DNA of 42,291 nt from Escherichia phage Lidtsur: the sequence record NC_048177.1, one strand, 5' to 3'. Positions 1 to 42,291 of this stretch are shown here, piece by piece. Numbering within the stretch: position 1 is the first letter of the stretch; each line of letters opens with the position of its first letter. Below the pieces are notes generated by a model. It was not told where the DNA came from. It made no database searches and worked only from the letters and a program-made list of their open reading frames with translations. The translations under genes were made by a program, and so were the position numbers.

Positions 1-393
1 ATGTACCGTATCTATGCAAGCGCATATCGTCAGGCAAACGCTGAGTGTGTTAATCTGGCGCTTCATTGCAAGGCACTGCGAACGGTGCAGGATATGTTCG
101 GAGTGATTCCGGTCACACTGACAGGCAAGTTTAACGATGCGTATGAGTTAAGCATGGTCTTCCCTGTCGATGGAATCTACGAAATCAGACAGGCTGTTAA
201 GCTGTTCTGTAAAGCCTTTGAACAGGACTGCATCATGGTAGTGACCGATGATGATGATGCAATCTTCATGGATTCACCATATCCGGGCAAGCCTGCTGGC
301 AAGTTTGTCAGCAAGACTGAGGCCGAAATGGAAGCCGGGCAATTCACTGCTTGGACTTACGATGGTGAGCAATTTTGGGTAGTGGAGGCATAA
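1..393 (+). CDS. hypothetical early protein (130 aa)
   Basis: ORF starts at ATG at position 1; a GGAG Shine-Dalgarno (CAACTGGAGAAATAACT) lies at the last bases of the window, so the gene is intact only if the contig is circularly permuted; acidic DDDD stretch; no recognisable domain. Confidence 0.5.
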   Translation: MYRIYASAYRQANAECVNLALHCKALRTVQDMFGVIPVTLTGKFNDAYELSMVFPVDGIYEIRQAVKLFCKAFEQDCIMVVTDDDDAIFMDSPYPGKPAGKFVSKTEAEMEAGQFTAWTYDGEQFWVVEA

Positions 394-17314: not shown

Positions 17315-19747
17315 ATGATGGATTTGCTGGCAGAACAGATTCGACTGGAAGAAGAAGCCCGCGCACGCCATCGCGCGGGGTGGTTAGACAACATCAAAGC
17401 AGCGATGGATGAAGGGCGGGCATCGGCTGTGCCGCTGTTGCAGCGTGCAATGGTTAAGGCTTATCCGACTGTCGAAGCAGCTATGCAGGAAATCCTGAAT
17501 GAGAATACTCGCGGCTTTGGTGCGCAGTACCGGACGCACATGCGGGAGATTGGGGTGAAGACCTGCGCTACTCTGGCGCTCAGCATGGCAATGTCAGGGG
17601 CGGTAGAGAAGGTCGCTGTTACGCAGCACCTACGCAGCATGGGGCAGGCTCTAATGGCTGAGGTGGTGTACCACAAAGCCTCAGCCAGAGGTGCGCGTGA
17701 AGCGGCTTACATGCAGCGTGTGGGGCAAGACGTTAAGCGCTCCAAGTCGAAGTCTCCCAATCACATCTACAACAAGGCCCGCGCATCGGCGGCTAACGTT
17801 GGGGTGCACATGGATGTGTTGCCTCAGCGTGCGCTCATCACAATCGGTAAGATGATGATGCGTGCAGTCGAACCAACAGGTCTGGTCAAGACTATCCGTA
17901 TCGGTGGCAGCGCCAGACAGCGTGGCACTGCACACTTCGCTCTGCATGATGATGTGATTATCATGCTCAACGACTGGATTAAGCTGCCCGATATGACAGT
18001 AGGCTGCTACCCAGTGATGATTATCCCGCCTGCGGAAATTAATCCCAATGGGCTTGGTGGTATGTGGCACTCTCCGGGGCAGGCGGCGACGTATCAGGCA
18101 ATCAGCCGACTGCGCCACAAAGAGTACCGCGCTCAGAAGGTAGACCCGCTACCCATTATCGAGCCGTGTATGATGCTCAGTGGCACGCCGTTCCGTATCA
18201 ATAAGATGGTGCTGGAGTTCCTACAAAACAACCACACTGGCGTTATGGGCCTGCCTGCTGCGCCAGTGGAACCTAAGCTGCCATTCACAATCCCGGAAGG
18301 TGTGAGCTTTGCTCAGTACATCAGCAGGTTCCCGCCTGAAATGCAGCAGAGGATGGACGCTGAGGCGCATGAATTTAAGGTTAAAACCCGCATGTACCAT
18401 AATGAGTACCGCAGGTTTACAACCAAGGTGCAGGCGCTCGGAAGTGCGCTGGCTGAGGCTAAGCGCTACTGTGCATACGAGCGTATCTACCTGCCGACAT
18501 ACGCCGACACTCGTGGCCGAATCTACTACGCATCGTCTCTGAATCCTCAAGGTATCGACGCAATAAGGGCGCTGCTAGAATTAGCCGACGCTGTGCCGCT
18601 TGGCAGTGAAGGGTTGTTCTGGCTGAAAGTGCATGTGGCCAACTGCTTCGGCTATGACGCCACTGACTTTGAAGACCGGGCGGCTTGGACTGACAAGACC
18701 CTGCCAAGACTTCGTGAAGCCTGCCGACTGCCGGAGGCTTACGACTCATTCTGGTCTGAGGCCGATAGTCCTCTGTGTGCATGGGCAGCTTCTGTAGAGC
18801 TGGTGCGTGCGCTGGATAGCGGCAACCCGGAAGAGTACCCGTGCCGCGTTGTTACGCAGTGGGATGCAACTTGCTCAGGTCTACAGCACCTGTCGGCTAT
18901 GCTCCGTGATGAGGTGGGCGGTGCTGCCGTCAACCTGATTAACTCGCCGGGGCGCAAAGCCGATATCTACCTCAAGACTGCTGACGCAGCAATGGCAGCA
19001 CTGCGCGAGTCTGAGGCATCCTGCAAGACTGAGCTGGGGCAGTGGCTGTTGAAGATTGGCATCCAGCGTGCGATGGCCAAGAAGCCTGTAATGACCTACG
19101 TTTACGGGGCAACCCGCCACGGTATGGTTGATTACTATGCCCTGTACCTGCGCGAGAACAACATCCCATTGCCTCCCGGACACAGCCTGTTCGAGTGTGC
19201 GATGTTCATTGCCGGGATTATGTGGGACGCTATACCGCGAGTGGTTCCTAAAGCGGCAGAGCTTATGGCTTGGTTGCAATCTCTGGCGACTATGGTGGCA
19301 GAGAAAGGAGAGTACGTTGAGGTGATAGCTCCGTCAGGCTTACGGATGGTTAATCTGTATCAGGCTTCGAAAGAGGCAGCTATGGGCCTGAACCTAATGG
19401 GTGTGCACGGCATTAAGATTAGGGAATGGCTGGATAAGCCGGACTCCCGTAAGTGTGCAGCAGCTATCTCACCCAACTTTGTGCACGCTATGGATGCCAG
19501 CCACATGATGAAAGTGCTGTGGGAAATGTGGAATAACGGGGTTTACATGGTGTCTATCCATGACTCCTTCGGCGTTGCGGCAGCACACGCTGGGCTGTTG
19601 CACAGAGTCATCCGTGAAAAATTCGTGCAGATGTACGAGGAACATGACCCTATTCAGCAACTTGCTGAAAGATATGGTGTTGAGCCTCCGGCTAAAGGCC
19701 AGTTGGATATCAAAGAGGTGCTGAAATCTACCAAGTTTTTCTGCTGA
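17315..19747 (+). CDS. single-subunit DNA-dependent RNA polymerase (T7-like)
   Basis: WDATCSGLQH (motif A), AKKPVMTYVYGATRHG (motif B) and VSIHDSFGV (motif C) parallel T7 RNAP catalytic motifs; 810 aa. Confidence 0.9.
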   Translation: MMDLLAEQIRLEEEARARHRAGWLDNIKAAMDEGRASAVPLLQRAMVKAYPTVEAAMQEILNENTRGFGAQYRTHMREIGVKTCATLALSMAMSGAVEKVAVTQHLRSMGQALMAEVVYHKASARGAREAAYMQRVGQDVKRSKSKSPNHIYNKARASAANVGVHMDVLPQRALITIGKMMMRAVEPTGLVKTIRIGGSARQRGTAHFALHDDVIIMLNDWIKLPDMTVGCYPVMIIPPAEINPNGLGGMWHSPGQAATYQAISRLRHKEYRAQKVDPLPIIEPCMMLSGTPFRINKMVLEFLQNNHTGVMGLPAAPVEPKLPFTIPEGVSFAQYISRFPPEMQQRMDAEAHEFKVKTRMYHNEYRRFTTKVQALGSALAEAKRYCAYERIYLPTYADTRGRIYYASSLNPQGIDAIRALLELADAVPLGSEGLFWLKVHVANCFGYDATDFEDRAAWTDKTLPRLREACRLPEAYDSFWSEADSPLCAWAASVELVRALDSGNPEEYPCRVVTQWDATCSGLQHLSAMLRDEVGGAAVNLINSPGRKADIYLKTADAAMAALRESEASCKTELGQWLLKIGIQRAMAKKPVMTYVYGATRHGMVDYYALYLRENNIPLPPGHSLFECAMFIAGIMWDAIPRVVPKAAELMAWLQSLATMVAEKGEYVEVIAPSGLRMVNLYQASKEAAMGLNLMGVHGIKIREWLDKPDSRKCAAAISPNFVHAMDASHMMKVLWEMWNNGVYMVSIHDSFGVAAAHAGLLHRVIREKFVQMYEEHDPIQQLAERYGVEPPAKGQLDIKEVLKSTKFFC

Positions 19748-20696: not shown

Positions 20697-22262
20697 ATGG
20701 TTCAAGACGCGCAGAACGTCAGCTATGAGTCTCTGTGGCAGAAGTACCGGGATAGCAACGTTGTCACCAAAGCGCGAGAGTACAGCCGATACACGCTGGC
20801 CAAACTGGTTAGCGAGTACGACCGCTCTGACGTTGACGATGTAAACCGCCAGCAGGTCACTCGTGACTACCAATCTGTGGGCGCTCTGCTCGTCAACAAC
20901 CTTGTCGCTCGACTCGGTGAGTTTCTGTTCCCGGCATCTGCCCGGTTCGTAAAGCTGAAATTAAACAAAGTCACTGATGCCATGCGGCAGAAAATGTCGC
21001 AGGTCAATCAGGCTTTAATCACTATTGAGAAAGCCATCGTCGATAAAGCTAAAGAGAACGGTGGCTATGCAGACCTACTGCAAACACTAGCCCAGCAAGC
21101 AGTCACTGGTAACGCCGCGCTGTACCGCGATATGGAAACTGGTTCGTACCGAGTGTACGGATTGGAATCCTTCGTGGTGCAGCGCGACGGTCGTGGCGTT
21201 GTTACGGACGCGATTATCAAAGAGCGCCTGCAATGGGACTCCCTGCCAAAAGACTTTCAGAACATGCTGAACGCCAAGGGATTCCGTTGTGGTGGCAACA
21301 AGCGTGTGTGGCTTTATACCCGCGTGCTCCGCGTCCAGAAGGAAAGTGGCAAGTACGGTTATGAGATTACCCAGCAGATTGGTAACTACCAAGGCTGCGT
21401 CTATACCCCCGGTAAAGATTACTACCCTGAAAAAGTATGCCCTTGGTTATTCCCAGTGTGGTCTTTGAAGTCTGGCGAGCATTATGGTCGCGGGATTGTC
21501 GAAGACCACGCTGGGGATTTCGCACGTCTGTCGCTTCTGTCTGAGCACAGCGCACTGTACATGCAAGAAGCCTTGCGCGTGCTGTGGCTGATGACTGGCT
21601 CTGGCGGCAACGCTGACGATATCGAGAACGCTGAGACAGGGCAGGTGGTTCCACTCCAGAGCGGCACAACGCTGGCTGGCTTGGAGGTCGGGGATTACAA
21701 CAAAGTTCAGCAGGCTCGTGACGAAATCAACCAGATTGTGCAGCGACTCGCGCAAGCGTTCATGTACACTGGCGAGTTCCGTGATTCCGAGCGTACCACC
21801 GCAACCGAAGTGCAGCAGGTAGCAACCAGCGCCGAGCGCGGGTTAGGTGGGCCATACTCCATGCAGGCTAAGACGCTCCAGATTCCTCTGGCATACGTCC
21901 TGCTCGCCGAACTGGATGAGGCAAACGTACCTGACATTGTGGGCGACGTACTTTCGCTTCAAGTTGAAGCAGGCTTAGACGCCCTCGGTCGCAGTATCGA
22001 GGCAGAGACGCTCATTCGTGCGTTGACTGACTCGCAGGCAGCAATGGTTGCTGTCCAAAATATCAACACGGTAGCGAACGTGATTGACCCTCAGCAGGTG
22101 CTGGAGACAATCTTCGCTTCTAATGGCGTTGCGCTGGATGACTATCGTAAATCCGCACAAGACTTGGCCAATGAAGGTCAGGCAATCGACAATGCAGCAG
22201 CCGCTGCCGCTGGCGTACAGCCCGGTGTAGTCGATACCGCGCCCAACGTCTCACAGATTTAA
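20697..22262 (+). CDS. head-tail connector (portal) protein
   Basis: 521 aa ORF immediately upstream of scaffold and capsid, matching T7 gp8 in size and position; GGGAG SD. Confidence 0.75.
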   Translation: MVQDAQNVSYESLWQKYRDSNVVTKAREYSRYTLAKLVSEYDRSDVDDVNRQQVTRDYQSVGALLVNNLVARLGEFLFPASARFVKLKLNKVTDAMRQKMSQVNQALITIEKAIVDKAKENGGYADLLQTLAQQAVTGNAALYRDMETGSYRVYGLESFVVQRDGRGVVTDAIIKERLQWDSLPKDFQNMLNAKGFRCGGNKRVWLYTRVLRVQKESGKYGYEITQQIGNYQGCVYTPGKDYYPEKVCPWLFPVWSLKSGEHYGRGIVEDHAGDFARLSLLSEHSALYMQEALRVLWLMTGSGGNADDIENAETGQVVPLQSGTTLAGLEVGDYNKVQQARDEINQIVQRLAQAFMYTGEFRDSERTTATEVQQVATSAERGLGGPYSMQAKTLQIPLAYVLLAELDEANVPDIVGDVLSLQVEAGLDALGRSIEAETLIRALTDSQAAMVAVQNINTVANVIDPQQVLETIFASNGVALDDYRKSAQDLANEGQAIDNAAAAAAGVQPGVVDTAPNVSQI

Positions 22263-36483: not shown

Positions 36484-36492
36484 GGAGTAATC

Positions 36493-36798
36493 ATGGCATC
36501 CGCTAACAAGCAGCTCGACGCGCTGCATCGGATGCTGGTTGAGTACCTTACTGACCGCTTGGTTGAGGCCCGGAAGAAAGATGAGGATGGCAACATCCTC
36601 GCTCCGATGGCCGCAGCCGAGCTGTCGGTACTTCGCCAGTTCCTCAAAGACAATGGCATCGCTGCTGATGCTGACCACGCCGACGACCTGCTGGCTCTCC
36701 AAGAGCAGCTCAAGCAGGAGAAATCGGATACTGCACGAAAGTCCATTATGGACGCTGCGATCACTTCAATCGCAGAAGATAGCGGGATGATGCACTAA
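36493..36798 (+). CDS. terminase small subunit (DNA maturase A)
   Basis: 101 aa helical protein directly upstream of the large terminase; AAGGAG SD. Confidence 0.55.
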   Translation: MASANKQLDALHRMLVEYLTDRLVEARKKDEDGNILAPMAAAELSVLRQFLKDNGIAADADHADDLLALQEQLKQEKSDTARKSIMDAAITSIAEDSGMMH

Positions 36799-38558
36799 TG
36801 GATTTACAACGCCGCATGGTGATGGCAGGAATCGTTCGCGCTCACTACGAGAACAACTTCCCGCTGTTCCTGCATGACTACTTCGCATGGCTGGGCTTTG
36901 ACCTCACTGAAATGCAGCTCGACATTGGCCGCTACATGGCCGACCGGACGCTCAAGAACAAGTGCGTCATGGCTCAGCGCGGTGAGGCTAAGTCCACCAT
37001 CGGTATTGCTCGCGCCCTGTATGAGTTCGTCCAGATGCCAAACGCCACTGTGCTGCTGGTATCTGGTTCGGACGATTACGCAGGTACGCTCTCGCACGCT
37101 ATCGTGTCTGCCATTATGCAGTGGGAGCGCCTTGAGTGGCTGCGCCCTGAGACTCGCGCTGGCGCACGTACGTCCTATACGGACGGCTTCGACGTGCACC
37201 ACGCATTCCGTATCCCTGACAAACAGCCCTCTGTCAAAGCGGTCGGTATCTTCGGCCAGTTGCAGGGGAACCACGTATCATTGCTGATTGCGGATGACGT
37301 GGAGACTACCAGTAACGGTAGCTCTCCTGCCAACCGCGCCCGTATCGCTACCCTGACCAAAGAGTTCGCCGCTATCGCCAACGACGGTGCAGAGATTCTA
37401 TACCTCGGCACGCCTCAGACTCAGGATTCCATCTATAACTCGCTGCCACAGCGTGGCTTTGACGTACGCATCTGGCCCGGTCGCTTCCCTACGCCGGAAG
37501 AAGAAGAGCGGTACGGAGGCTGTCTGGCCCCGTGGATTAAGCAGAAGATGGATGGCCACCCTGAGCTGCGCACTGGATACGGCATTCTTGGTAATCGCGG
37601 TGCTCAGACTGACCCGCAGCGCTACTCAGAAGAGAAGCAGTTGCAGAACGAACGTGACTATCAGCAGGCAGGCTTCCAGCTCCAGTTCATGCTGGACACG
37701 TCGCTGTCTGACGCGCTCAAACAGACACTGCAACTTCGTGACTTAATCCTGTTCCACGGCTCTCCGCAGTCGGCACCGGAGTATTTGCACTGGTCTAATC
37801 ATCCGCGTCATCTGGCAGAGCTGCCTATGGACTTCCCGCTCGCCCGCGCCCAGCTTTATCTGGCCGCTGATTTCTCGGAGACTTATGTACCATTCACGAA
37901 TACCAAGGCGTTTCTTGACCCTGCTGGTGGTGGGACGGACGAATCAGTTATCTTTGCCACAGCTTCTATCGGCCCGTTTATCCATGTCCTCGGTATGCAC
38001 GTCTACCACGGAGGGCAGACGGAAGAGAACATCAAGACGGCGGTAGAATGGCTGCATAAGATGGGCGTTCTGCACATCACCATTGAAGACAACATGGGCC
38101 ACGGTGCAGTAACCAACATGTATCGTGGTGAAATTAAGCGGCAGGGATTGGCCATCGGCTGCGAGGGTACTTACTCCAGCGGCCAGAAAGAAGTGCGTGT
38201 GATTAGCCGACTCAGCCCAATCCTCCAGCGCCACCGCGTGGTGATGCACTGGTCTGTGCTTGAGGAAGACTTGCGCCTATGCCGCAACATGCACAATGGC
38301 GGGCGGGAATACAGCTTGTTCTGGCAGATGCAGAACATCACGCAGGACAAGAACGCAATACCGCACGATGACCGAATTGAAACCCTATCCGCTGCCGTGT
38401 ACCTCCATGCTGAGGTGCTCCAGCAAGACGAACATGAAGAGGCCCAGCGCCGTGAGGCTAAGGCTGCCAAAGAGTTCTTGGCTAACCCAATGGGTTACGA
38501 TGACTCTAAATGGCGCAGCCACAAACCCGTGCGCGGAACTCGTCGGAGAATTAGATAA
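36798..38558 (+). CDS. terminase large subunit (DNA maturase B)
   Basis: 586 aa, same length as T7 gp19; Walker A-like QRGEAKST and Walker B-like LLIADDVE. Confidence 0.85.
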   Translation: MDLQRRMVMAGIVRAHYENNFPLFLHDYFAWLGFDLTEMQLDIGRYMADRTLKNKCVMAQRGEAKSTIGIARALYEFVQMPNATVLLVSGSDDYAGTLSHAIVSAIMQWERLEWLRPETRAGARTSYTDGFDVHHAFRIPDKQPSVKAVGIFGQLQGNHVSLLIADDVETTSNGSSPANRARIATLTKEFAAIANDGAEILYLGTPQTQDSIYNSLPQRGFDVRIWPGRFPTPEEEERYGGCLAPWIKQKMDGHPELRTGYGILGNRGAQTDPQRYSEEKQLQNERDYQQAGFQLQFMLDTSLSDALKQTLQLRDLILFHGSPQSAPEYLHWSNHPRHLAELPMDFPLARAQLYLAADFSETYVPFTNTKAFLDPAGGGTDESVIFATASIGPFIHVLGMHVYHGGQTEENIKTAVEWLHKMGVLHITIEDNMGHGAVTNMYRGEIKRQGLAIGCEGTYSSGQKEVRVISRLSPILQRHRVVMHWSVLEEDLRLCRNMHNGGREYSLFWQMQNITQDKNAIPHDDRIETLSAAVYLHAEVLQQDEHEEAQRREAKAAKEFLANPMGYDDSKWRSHKPVRGTRRRIR

Positions 38559-39942: not shown

Positions 39943-40294
39943 CAACCATTCGCGTATGGGCGCGGTGGAGGCTCGTATGCAATCCGTAGAAACTCGCCTC
40001 GACAAACACGAGATTCAAATTGCCAACCTCGAAAAAGGTGACGCTGCCATGATTGCTAAGCTGGCGGAGAACGACTCCCGCTGGGTTGAGATTCAGCAGC
40101 AATTGCGCGTTGTCGAGCAAATTCAGGATATCCAAAAGACAATGAGCCATATCGGTAAACTGTTCACGTACACGGCTCATGCCGTCAAGTGGTGCCTGCT
40201 AACCGCATCCCTTGTTAGCGGTATCTACCTCGCTATCAAAGCTGGCGACTTAGCATCGTTGCTGGCATTCATTCAAGCTCTAATGGGGATGTAA
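39911..40294 (+). CDS. membrane-anchored coiled-coil protein, candidate holin or lysis regulator
   Basis: AGGAAGG SD; N-terminal heptad-like region then C-terminal hydrophobic segments (WCLLTASLVSGIYLAI, LASLLAFIQALMGM); immediately upstream of endolysin. Confidence 0.4.
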   Translation: MTEQKKEPTPNNHSRMGAVEARMQSVETRLDKHEIQIANLEKGDAAMIAKLAENDSRWVEIQQQLRVVEQIQDIQKTMSHIGKLFTYTAHAVKWCLLTASLVSGIYLAIKAGDLASLLAFIQALMGM

Positions 40295-40830
40295 TGACTA
40301 ACTTTGAAATCTGTATGAAGTTCACCGGGCTGGCTGAGGGTGGCTATACCAAGCTGCCCGGTGACACTGGAGGGGAAACCAATCATGGAATTAGTGACGC
40401 TCGTGATGGAAAGCTGGATGGTCGAGCTTGCGGTGTCCCTACTGGGCTTGGCGGGACTATTTGTGTTCCTATCAAGCAGCTCACCAAAGAGCAAGCCGAA
40501 GCTATCTATCGCCGGGACTACTTCACCCCAATCCGTGGTGACGAGTTACACCCTGCGATTGCATGTGCCGTGTTCGACTTCGGTGTCAACTCCGGCGTCG
40601 CCCGCGCAGCTAAAGCTCTACAGCGGGTATGCGGTGTTGCACAGGACGGTGTTATCGGTGCTGCAACCGTGGCAGCGGCCAAGCGTCTGGAACCTCACTC
40701 CGCAGCAGCATCCATCTGTGACATTCGTATTGAGTTCCTAAAGGCTTCTACAGCCCCGACAATCGTTCGGTATAGGGATGCCTTGGTTGCTCGTGCAAAA
40801 CGCTGTAGCGCTTACTGTGCGACGTTATAG
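40294..40830 (+). CDS. endolysin, GH108-type N-terminal domain
   Basis: FTGLAEGGYTKLPGDTGGETNHGIS matches the EGGY...GG.T..GI signature of GH108 muramidases; last gene before the terminal non-coding region; no N-terminal TMD. Confidence 0.75.
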   Translation: MTNFEICMKFTGLAEGGYTKLPGDTGGETNHGISDARDGKLDGRACGVPTGLGGTICVPIKQLTKEQAEAIYRRDYFTPIRGDELHPAIACAVFDFGVNSGVARAAKALQRVCGVAQDGVIGAATVAAAKRLEPHSAAASICDIRIEFLKASTAPTIVRYRDALVARAKRCSAYCATL

Positions 40831-40899
40831 GGGCATTGAAAGCTGGGACATTGAACAGGCGTAATACCCCGGCTTGAAAATTGACTATTTGTGCGTGGG

Positions 40900-41410
40900 C
40901 CTCCCTCGACTCGAAGGAGCGCCTGCGCCCCCGTACGCCTGTGCGCGTGCGCGTGCATGACGTGTGCGCATTATGCGCGTGTGCCTGCGCGTGCGGTATT
41001 GCTCGCGTGCGTGCGGTAACAGCTCGCGCGTGCCCGTTTCCATTGTCGCGGTGTGGCGTGCTGTGCTCTGCGCGGTGCTGTGCCACTGCTGGCTGTGCCA
41101 CTGCTACCACTGGACGCGCCTGCGCTGGCCTGCGCTGGTATCGGCTCCGGTCGTGGCGGGTATCTATCTCTTTTGCCTGCGTGCTGCGCCTGCGTCCTGT
41201 CACTGCCTGCTAGCGCCTGCTATCTGCCTGCGCTCGCCTGCCTCCAGCTACTCCAGCTAATCGCGTCACTGCTACTAGCCGTTGCTAGCCGTGATACTTG
41301 CTATCCGTTCGCGTTCTCTCGCTATCCACTGCGTGTCCAGCTCGCTCCGCTCCGCGCTCCGCTACCGCACTGCGTGCTGCGTCGCTTACGCTGCGTATCG
41401 CTTACAGCTT
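40900..41410 (+). repeat. A-depleted GC-rich short-repeat tract, probable terminal-repeat / packaging region
   Basis: About 500 bp almost free of A on the + strand, built from reiterated TGCGCG, CCTGCGC, GCTGCG, GCTCCGC units; non-coding; sits between last and first gene. Confidence 0.5.
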
Positions 41411-41570
41411 ATACTGTAACAGTTACTTTCATTTACTCACTGATTTATAAAGAGTTTTAGACGGTTATTAGCTACTGATTGAGCTATTCAAGTATCTATC
41501 CAATCAAATATTTAATCCTATTGAATACATACACTTACCTACATTTTGAGCTATTCAGTGAAAATAATTC

Positions 41571-41599
41571 TTGCAATGCTGTTTGTGATTTGCTGTAAT
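41571..41599 (+). promoter_or_regulatory. sigma70-type early promoter candidate P1
   Basis: -35 TTGCAA (41571-41576), 17-bp spacer, -10 TGTAAT (41594-41599). Confidence 0.55.
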
Positions 41600-41675
41600 T
41601 CATCTCGCCGGGTAGCAATGCAGCGCTACACGGTGGGCTAGATGGTTAGCCAGCTCTTTAACAATCTGGAGTGTA

Positions 41676-41704
41676 TTGACAAGCGAGTCTCACTATGCTG
41701 TAAT
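41676..41704 (+). promoter_or_regulatory. sigma70-type early promoter candidate P2
   Basis: -35 TTGACA (41676-41681), 17-bp spacer, -10 TGTAAT (41699-41704). Confidence 0.65.
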
Positions 41705-41756
41705 ACGCTCCAGATTGACAGGGCAAGCAAGCCTGACAGTCAGTAGTAAAAAGTGG

Positions 41757-41786
41757 TTGACAAGCCGATTCAAGATGTGATGTAAT
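41757..41786 (+). promoter_or_regulatory. sigma70-type early promoter candidate P3
   Basis: -35 TTGACA (41757-41762), 18-bp spacer, -10 TGTAAT (41781-41786); P2 and P3 share the TTGACAAGC core. Confidence 0.6.
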
Positions 41787-42291
41787 CGGCACCGAGTTGA
41801 AAGGATGAAAAGCATCCTGCTCTGAGTGAACGCAAACTGGCCGCGTAGTGTCACGGCTCACTGGGTATCCGCCGCAGGTTGGAACTGGGTGAGGCATCGC
41901 CGAAAGGCAACGGTATCGCAACATTGCTAACGCCGTAGGGGTAGCGCCCGATGCAGGGAACAGAGAAGCGCGATAGACGCAGCGCAGTATCAGTACAATC
42001 CCAAACGTCTTATAAGCATTGTAGACAGTAGGGGACGTAGCAAAACACACTCGACTTTGAGCTGGCGCGTAGCAGGTTGCGCAGGGTATGACTGAGTGTT
42101 GAGCGGAGTCGCTGAAAGATACTTGAATCCGATGATAAATGCCGGATTATGCGAAATGGGCGGGGCGATTTTTCAGGGTAGTGAATCCGACAAGCCATTC
42201 CATGCCGAACAAACCTAGTACGCTACTGGTACGGCGCGTCACAATGGGTTCACTATCCACCTGAAAATAGCCAACAACTGGAGAAATAACT

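Follow-up and report, generated by a model that had tools for sequence, protein, structure and literature searches.

An adenine-poor, non-coding tract of Escherichia phage Lidtsur as the probable concatemer junction of a T7-like genome

The DNA considered here is the whole 42,291-nt record of Escherichia phage Lidtsur (MK629528 / NC_048177), referred to below as the window, and the element in question is a tract at positions 40900–41410 whose + strand is poor in adenine (A). The tract lies between the last gene, which encodes a GH108 endolysin, and the first, which encodes an S-adenosylmethionine (SAM) lyase. A preliminary description of this DNA had placed it correctly, although it fills only the first third of the 1461-nt intergenic region, beginning 70 nt past the endolysin stop and ending 881 nt ahead of the SAM-lyase ATG. 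The window closes with 12 bases (GGAGAAATAACT) that form the ribosome-binding site of that first ATG, and the record therefore reads as a circular permutation, a genome put together as a circle and cut open at the first gene. All of the closest database relatives of positions 40700–41700 belong to Bonnellvirus (Autographiviridae), among them smaasur, forsur, J8-65, Kc261 and RZ4, and the genome can be assigned to the phiKMV-like T7-like phages of this genus. It encodes a family A DNA polymerase, a single-subunit RNA polymerase and a T7-type pair of terminases (Table 1), as expected of a T7-type terminal-repeat end, and the tract occupies the corresponding place, non-coding DNA between a lysis gene and the early promoters and first early gene. 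The tract is here read, with a probability of roughly 0.85, as the non-coding concatemer-junction region of a T7-like genome, made up of the terminal repeat and the spacer that adjoins it. This kind of feature is already known and is annotated in J8-65, the closest named relative; in Lidtsur it is unmarked. What is modestly new is an A-poor leader anchored at the left genome end of phiKMV-like and SP6-like phages, together with a conserved island that bridges motifs of the T7 and phiKMV types.

The composition of the tract sets it apart from the rest of the genome. Its + strand (511 nt) holds 46 A, 182 C, 150 G and 133 T, that is, 9.0% A against 23.5% genome-wide, a 2.6-fold depletion (binomial P(A<=46) = 1e-17), and 65.0% G+C against 54.6% genome-wide. 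The 500 nt with the fewest A, starting at 40888, contain 42, compared with a genome mean of 117.5 (standard deviation 12.5) and a minimum of 89 elsewhere; G is the only other base with a comparable outlier, and its minimum falls in the adjoining AT-rich block. The preliminary description was therefore right to call the tract GC-rich and depleted of A, and its limits agree to about 10 nt with the maximal-scoring A-poor segment (40888–41403), but the wording 'almost devoid of A' was too strong, because values of 1.4–4.4% A are reached only in hypervariable sub-segments. The depletion is strongest where conservation is weakest. The five short words it had named all recur in the tract (TGCGCG five times, CCTGCGC five, GCTGCG and GCTCCGC three each, CTATCC twice), and identical k-mer pairs exceed those of 500 dinucleotide-preserving shuffles for k = 5–9 (z = 5.4–8.0, with 0/500 reaching the observed value). 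GCCTGCG stands out most: of the 11 copies in the genome, 7 fall within the tract. Repeats of 10–23 nt are mostly present in two copies, irregularly spaced, and form no regular array. Alternating purine–pyrimidine (CG/TG) runs cluster at 40940–41015, inside the repeat described below; of the eight runs that reach 12 nt or more, five fall in this stretch, including the longest of the genome (20 nt, 40940–40959). Shorter runs of the same kind occur 35–100 nt from the left end in LKA1, LIMEzero and LIMElight.

The long open reading frames (ORFs) of the tract had been regarded as spurious from the outset, and this judgement was borne out. They measure 110, 98 and 135 amino acids (aa) on the + strand and 151 aa on the − strand, and the three + frames are simultaneously free of stops for 99–143 codons. 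When 11 Bonnellvirus genomes were aligned (the window, smaasur, J8-65 and eight others), 694 of the 827 pairwise indel runs were not multiples of three; forsur and Kc261 differ by four 1-nt indels in the tract at 93% identity. No Pfam match was obtained for any of the tract ORFs. On the grounds of indel phase, of three + frames open at once and of the lack of a Pfam match, the tract is non-coding. The idea that it encodes one or more small proteins draws on the existence of ORFs of 98–151 aa and on the GenBank records of five relatives, forsur (forsur_28), Kc261 (QQM15444.1), glasur, HHU8 and ROV85 (gp21–23), in which hypothetical proteins are annotated over the equivalent tract. However, the annotated ORFs of different relatives share neither frame nor position, and the opening of all three + frames together is an effect of composition. 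Set beside the out-of-phase indels, these observations effectively refute the idea, and the hypothetical proteins of the relatives are best explained as base-composition artefacts.

The evidence that the tract contains a genome end comes in the first place from J8-65 (Bonnellvirus J865; KM247287/NC_025445), whose record annotates a 259-bp repeat_region at 1..259 and 40723..40981, the two copies being identical. In a four-way alignment, base 1 of J8-65 (TCGACCCGAAGG) corresponds to position 40906 of the window and the last base of the repeat to about 41149, and window 40906–41161 is 85.9% identical to J8-65 1–272. No second copy was found elsewhere in the window, in keeping with an assembly in which the repeat is collapsed. 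Depending on whether the right edge is set at 41149 (the J8-65 annotation), at 41161 (directly 5′ of ATCT, as in T7 and T3) or at 41165 (by analogy with LKA1), the repeat would be 244–260 bp long. It would account for the first half or so of the tract of roughly 510 bp, the remainder being a unique spacer of the left end. The left genome end, which is also the left boundary of the repeat, is predicted to fall between 40905 and 40906. An independent line of support for this position is the motif CCCCC(A/G)T, found about 23–27 nt from the left end in 14/14 reference genomes with annotated or record-initial ends (T7, T3, K11, gh-1, SP6, K1-5, phiKMV, LKD16, LKA1, LIMElight, KP34, JG068, RSB1 and J8-65) and present in the window 23 nt from 40906, as expected. 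Upstream of the cut-site block, in DNA of normal composition between the endolysin stop and the repeat, lies the invariant block CCCGGCTTGAAAATTG, a candidate terminase recognition element, and LIMEzero carries a similar block, CCGACCTAAAAATTGAA, at the corresponding place. According to the authors who isolated Lidtsur, read abundance fitted repeats a few hundred bp in length. The proposal of a genome terminus with a direct repeat is in this way supported by homology with J8-65, by a hallmark motif shared with the reference genomes, as the comparison with related termini suggested in the preliminary description brought out, and by the terminase genes, rather than by physical mapping.

Two observations on the flank of the left end deserve a record of their own. 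The record of Pantoea phage LIMEzero (NC_015585) begins about 40 nt upstream of the block CCTCCC/TCGAC (the stroke marks the predicted cut) and carries no repeat annotation; record position 41 is the probable true left end, and the terminal repeat of this phage is unmarked. In eight relatives the endolysin stop is followed, directly upstream of the invariant TTGAAAATTG, by the hairpin-capable sequence GCCGTGGG-TGCAATA-CCCCGGC, the 5′ arm of which is deleted in the window (40853–40883), smaasur and J8-65 (CAGGCG-TAATA-CCCCGGC); if this hairpin is a terminator or processing element, it is a dispensable one.

At the right boundary of the predicted repeat, a second conserved island reads TATCTATCTCTTTTGCC in the window, where the 14-mer is unique in the genome, and TATCTGTCTCTTTT in eight relatives. 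Its position recalls ATCTGTT, the class II signal at which T7 RNA polymerase pauses or terminates. This heptamer occurs naturally at the concatemer junction of T7, functions as part of the non-template strand, must follow A, C or T and needs a downstream U-run (PMC11617373). Any base change in the heptamer has been reported to abolish termination by the T7 enzyme. The hexamer ATCTGT lies at the right boundary of the repeat in T7, T3, K11, gh-1, SP6, K1-5, JG068 and RSB1 (Table 1), and the record of Klebsiella phage K11 (NC_011043) annotates positions 180–188, directly after the repeat and overlapping TATCTGTT, as 'concatemeric junction'. The window island (41161–41174) lies 0–13 nt past the predicted boundary and has a U-run, TCTCTTTT, directly downstream (41167–41174). 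The exact heptamer is missing: the window has T-ATCTATC, which agrees at 5/7 positions, and the eight relatives T-ATCTGTC, which agrees at 6/7. Judged by its letters, the island falls outside the T7 class II family. Since the cognate polymerase is very different, this mismatch bears on class membership and not on an analogous function, and because of the position, conservation and U-run of the island it is plausible, with odds somewhat on the negative side, that it acts as a pause signal for this divergent polymerase. Directly after the boundary, phiKMV, LKD16, LKA1, LIMElight and KP34 have CCTTGCCTCT or TGCCT(C)TTTTG, and the Bonnellvirus island TATCTGTCTCTTTTGCC holds both the T7-type ATCTGT and the phiKMV-type CTCTTTTG elements.

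The alignment of the 11 genomes shows how the junction is built (Table 1). Invariant islands flank both boundaries of the repeat, and the left one is conserved beyond the genus; between and beyond them the DNA is variable and rich in indels, and the hypervariable parts of the repeat contain 36–51% G. Past the spacer, an AT-rich block with the conserved cores ACTTTCAT and AATCAAATATTTA takes the position of the phiOL secondary-origin region of T7. It is followed by three sigma-70-type promoter-like sites, 666–852 nt from the predicted left end, and the LIMEzero homologue of the first of them is annotated as a putative host promoter. A scan of 40300–42291, tract included, for strict consensus promoters and terminators gave zero hits; it missed the three sites because their −10 hexamer, TGTAAT, has G at position 2. 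A leader of about 500 nt separates them from the SAM lyase, and its folding is unremarkable (z = −0.76).

Table 1. Positions of junction features and relevant genes in the window and of corresponding features in related phages
Genome	Feature	Position	Strand	Remarks
Window	SAM lyase	1–393	+	very first ORF; anti-restriction; PF23780
Window	RNA polymerase	17315–19747	+	single-subunit phage enzyme; PF00940 (2e-87)
Window	Portal gene	20697–22262		RNA polymerase gene just upstream, a phiKMV-type arrangement
Window	Small terminase	36484–36800	+	T7 gp18-like; PF11123 DNA_Packaging_2 (2e-17)
Window	Large terminase	36798–38558	+	T7-type (gp19-like); PF22530 T7 terminase RNaseH-like domain (1e-22)
Window	Endolysin	40294–40830		GH108; last gene; PF05838
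Window	Invariant 16-nt block CCCGGCTTGAAAATTG	40868–40883	+	identical in 11/11 genomes; 22 nt upstream of cut site
Window	Cut-site block CCTCCC/TCGAC	40900–40910	+	invariant in 11 genomes; also in LIMEzero and Pectobacterium phage Khlen
Window	Direct terminal repeat, single collapsed copy (predicted)	40906–41161		right edge uncertain; 8% A, G+T+C-rich; J8-65 homology
Window	First ~130 bp of repeat	40906–41035		well conserved, 45–80% invariant columns; most of the remaining A (12%)
Window	Left-end hallmark motif CCCCCGTA	40928–40935	+	23 nt from 40906
Window	Hypervariable segment	41036–41111		indel-rich; 4.4% A
Window	Conserved island GGACGCGCCTGCGCTGG (GGACGC..CTGCGCTGG)	41112–41128	+	invariant at 41112–41117 and 41120–41128; inside hypervariable right half of repeat
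Window	Variable segment	41137–41159		1.4% A, 51% G
Window	Boundary island TATCT(A/G)TCTCTTTT(GCC)	41161–41177	+	60% invariant columns; indel-rich flanks
Window	Unique spacer past repeat	~41166–41410	+	A-poor, C-rich; left genome end only; positional counterpart of T7 SRL
Window	Hypervariable segment	41180–41227		3.0% A
Window	Semi-conserved islands alternating with variable DNA	41228–41410		CCAGCT..CGCGTC at 41253–41267; 41344–41401
Window	AT-rich block	41411–41570		72% A+T; between spacer and early promoters
Window	Promoter-like site 1	41571–41599	+	TTGCAA, 17 nt, TGTAAT; conserved in relatives
Window	Promoter-like site 2	41676–41704	+	TTGACA, 17 nt, TGTAAT
Window	Promoter-like site 3	41757–41786	+	TTGACA, 18 nt, TGTAAT
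Window (numbered from 40906)	A-poor segment	14–498		485 bp; 8.2% A
J8-65	A-poor segment	14–521		508 bp; 7.7% A
phiKMV	A-poor segment	15–944		930 bp; 9.1% A
LKD16	A-poor segment	15–849		835 bp; 10.1% A
LKA1	A-poor segment	16–470		455 bp; 6.4% A
LIMElight	A-poor segment	15–476		462 bp; 11.5% A
KP34	A-poor segment	58–454		397 bp; 13.1% A
SP6	A-poor segment	1–254		254 bp; 13.0% A
K1-5	A-poor segment	1–302		302 bp; 16.2% A
RSB1	A-poor segment	1–402		402 bp; 12.4% A
JG068	A-poor segment	16–232		217 bp; 14.3% A
T7	ATCTGT at right boundary of repeat	161		160-bp repeat
T3	ATCTGT at right boundary of repeat	232		231-bp repeat
K11	ATCTGT	182		180-bp repeat
gh-1	ATCTGT	210 and 220		216-bp repeat
SP6	ATCTGT	174		174-bp repeat, not annotated in the record
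K1-5	ATCTGT	234		repeat not annotated
JG068	ATCTGT	216		216-bp repeat
RSB1	ATCTGT	325		repeat not annotated

These elements can be arranged into a model of the junction that follows the T7/T3 paradigm. Replicating genomes would be joined head to tail through a single copy of the repeat. A terminase of the T7 type would cut within CCTCCC/TCGAC (40905/40906) to create left ends and near the TATCT(A/G)TCTCTTTT island, at about 41149–41165, to create right ends, and re-synthesis of the repeat would provide every packaged genome with two copies. The TATCTRTC island may cause the phage RNA polymerase to pause as it reads through from the late genes, marking the junction for processing, and between the single-copy constrained islands the DNA would turn over by slippage of A-less words of the CTG/GTG/GCG type. 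Several points weigh against this reading. The window holds one copy of the repeat, and its physical ends are deduced from homology, not mapping; no account of how the ends of J8-65 were mapped was found in the literature searched, and the genome announcement examined omits this phage. The annotated right end of J8-65 lies 13 nt upstream of the TATCT island, which makes the boundary uncertain by about 15 nt. As for the island, the window departs from ATCTGTT at two positions of a heptamer in which T7 polymerase reportedly tolerates no change, LIMEzero carries CTACTCTACCTCTTTT at the equivalent place, phiKMV, LKA1, LIMElight and KP34 have a sequence of the TGCCT(C)TTTT type and not ATCT(G/A)T, and exact ATCTGTT occurs three times on the + strand within early genes, at the frequency expected by chance. 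Finally, the tests run give no mechanistic explanation of the depletion of A.

The A-poor composition is not peculiar to Lidtsur. A tract of 492–580 bp with 6.3–8.5% A was found in all 11 Bonnellvirus genomes, and when A-poor segments were scored from the left end in other phages, comparable ones were detected in phiKMV-like and SP6-like genomes (Table 1). LIMEzero is A-poor over roughly the first 650 nt of its record, while T7 has an A-poor stretch of 97 nt only and T3, K11 and gh-1 lack one almost entirely. Where present, the tract begins at the physical end of the genome and in every case extends past the repeat. No prior description of A-depletion at such termini was found in the literature searched, which lacked key phiKMV-like terminus papers. 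Genera with next to no sequence in common have kept the A-poor state, which sets in at the physical left end. This suggests that the state itself is maintained, either by selection on the DNA that first enters the cell or through a strand-specific role in duplication of the repeat.

Three ideas, which do not exclude one another, bear on the cause of the bias. In the one with the best claim, which is still unlikely, A-depletion is selected because the first-entering DNA, which waits in the cell until phage genes are expressed, has to be an inert, signal-free leader of suitable length ahead of the early promoters; once A is removed from one strand, no motif made up of both A and T can remain, be it a sigma-70 −10 or −35 element (pointing either way), a restriction site dependent on adenine methylation or an AT-rich protein-binding site. 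This would fit a tract that, in 10 phages drawn from several subfamilies, starts 1–16 nt from the left end and does not reach the early promoters, that keeps its low A content even in segments without sequence conservation, and in which the promoter and terminator scans came out empty, as well as the distance of the promoter-like sites from the end, which matches the geometry of T7 A1–A3 at 498–750. However, T7 and T3 enter the cell in the same way with no such tract, save for about 100 nt in T7, and 500 bp would rarely hold a given restriction site in any case, which makes for weak selection. The strand asymmetry may instead serve duplication of the repeat, through a polymerase pause at TATCTRTC and an R-loop or single-stranded intermediate that helps the terminase to nick and the repeat to be re-synthesised. 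The pause-like island at the boundary and the G-rich hypervariable parts of the repeat speak for this, as does the GC skew of the window, T7, T3, SP6 and phiKMV, where the 100 nt leading up to the boundary show a positive or neutral value and the DNA downstream of it a negative one. As a universal feature this switch was rejected, being a trend seen in 5/10 phages and absent or delayed in LIMElight, JG068, KP34, LKA1 and J8-65. The A-poor tract, moreover, extends well beyond the pause island, the pause function is putative and the RNA of the two halves folds like shuffled sequence (z = +1.25 and 0.0), so that a role in duplication looks rather doubtful. It is less probable again that the composition is a neutral by-product of A-less words expanding and contracting by replication slippage in unconstrained non-coding DNA. 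A is indeed scarcest in the hypervariable segments, which are rich in indels and consist of short words peculiar to a clade, but the same bias, on the same strand and from the same starting landmark, recurs in phiKMV, LKA1, LIMElight, KP34 and SP6 at near-zero nucleotide similarity, and is therefore hard to explain without selection. Deamination of single-stranded DNA would have lowered C as well, whereas C is enriched (35%), and a mutational bias of this type was discarded for the same misfit.

The reiterated units had also been considered as a recognition array in the preliminary description, that is, as binding sites for the small terminase or a host factor. In favour of such an array are the excess of repeated k-mers over shuffles, the concentration of GCCTGCG in the tract and the precedent of T7, where an array of CCTAAAG-type repeats adjoins the terminal repeat. 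The over-represented words nevertheless differ between clades: GCCTGCG and CACTGC characterise one clade (the window, smaasur and J8-65); in the other eight Bonnellvirus genomes, where GCCTGCG occurs once, GGTGCTG, GTGGTG and CTGTCC prevail. A comparison with the SRL/SRR-type arrays of T7 gave agreement in position alone, as the words of the tract are present in 4–10 copies at irregular spacing. They lie, in addition, in the hypervariable, indel-rich segments, whereas each conserved element occurs once. This gives the repeats the look of slippage products in a compositionally constrained spacer rather than of a conserved array of binding sites, and an array is improbable. On the reading of the tract as a concatemer junction, a further step can be proposed, for which the odds are about as long as for the role in duplication. 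The strand-specific A-depleted leader, beginning within about 15 nt of the left end and running through the repeat and 150–500 bp beyond it, would be a selected and seemingly undescribed hallmark of phiKMV-like and SP6-like Autographiviridae, forming part of the junction-processing machinery together with the boundary island; the polymerase would pause at the island, a strand-asymmetric intermediate would arise, and the repeat would be duplicated.

Other identities of the tract were considered and set aside. A known RNA family is contradicted by an Rfam search whose sole match was a chance-level miRNA (E = 0.82), and a structured RNA or single-stranded DNA by the folding of the two halves, no better than that of shuffles. 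A search for long inverted repeats or hairpins at the junction gave one weak pair only (18 nt, 78%, 324 nt apart). Host origin was dismissed after 0 matches among 5,426 complete E. coli genomes (distant mode), and an assembly artefact is ruled out by the presence of the tract in 11 independently sequenced genomes. Although the G/T-rich words of the tract resemble Chi, GCTGGTGG, no exact copy is present on either strand in the tracts of the 11 genomes. In the Lidtsur genome as a whole, the Chi octamer occurs nine times on the + strand (858, 10283, 12573, 15764, 23154, 25938, 29896, 34624 and 37923) and never on the − strand. This skew could stem from codon usage (CTG-GTG, all genes lying on the + strand) or be related to RecBCD, since the enzyme coming in from the right end would recognise Chi in this orientation.

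A practical consequence of the predicted genome start at 40906 is that the record can be re-oriented and about 250 bp of repeat added to the length of the virion DNA. The proteins annotated over the equivalent tract of relatives can likewise be treated as artefacts. The combination of an A-poor tract at the left end, a C5RTA motif about 25 nt in and a conserved, pyrimidine-rich island at the right boundary of the repeat offers a locator of termini that works from the letters alone in collapsed T7-like assemblies, and the occurrence of ATCTGT at the boundary (K11, gh-1, K1-5, SP6, JG068 and RSB1) could place repeat boundaries in unannotated records. If the A-poor leader is indeed selected, composition by itself could predict genome ends and repeat boundaries in collapsed assemblies; and if the island does pause a phiKMV-type polymerase, the T7 mechanism of transcription-coupled packaging would extend family-wide.

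Compared with known systems, the junction of Lidtsur is closest to that of J8-65, with which it shares the flanking invariant islands, the location after the GH108 endolysin and before the SAM lyase, and an A-poor tract reaching about 250 bp beyond the repeat. The two differ in that the Lidtsur record is collapsed and permuted, with the repeat unmarked, and in several 10–21-nt indels within the internal hypervariable segments, with TCGACTCG in the window against TCGACCCG in J8-65 at the end. T7, T3 and K11 have no nucleotide homology with the window, and its heptamer is inexact (ATCTATC or ATCTGTC), but the order of elements and the distances between them are similar. In the T7 record, a 160-bp repeat is followed by ATCTGTTACAG at 161, reiterated CCTAAAG units, an AT-rich stretch at 344–473 with phiOL, the promoters A1–A3 at 498, 626 and 750 and the anti-restriction gene at 925. 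Shared with these phages are the C5RTA motif, located some 25 nt in from the end, a conserved T/C-rich signal with ATCT(G/A)T at the right boundary of the repeat, three host promoters 500–850 nt from the end and an anti-restriction gene as the first gene, so that the left ends of the window and of T7 and T3 are collinear. The region after the repeat is A-poor and C-rich in the window, without a consensus unit, whereas the SRL of T7 is A-rich and G-poor with reiterated CCTAAAG, and the RNA polymerase of the window is of the divergent phiKMV type, its gene lying beside the structural genes, unlike that of T7. The phiKMV group, with experimentally reported repeats of 414 bp in phiKMV, 428 in LKD16, 298 in LKA1, 277 in LIMElight and 216 in KP34 (lengths from the annotations and from PMC3765740), lacks the ATCT(G/A)T element and has essentially no similarity to the window beyond short motifs. 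These five phages resemble it in having a + strand tract poor in A that starts about 15 nt from the left end and extends 180–530 bp beyond the repeat, a pyrimidine-rich CCTCT/CTCTTTTG motif immediately to the right of the boundary, and non-coding DNA up to the host promoters.

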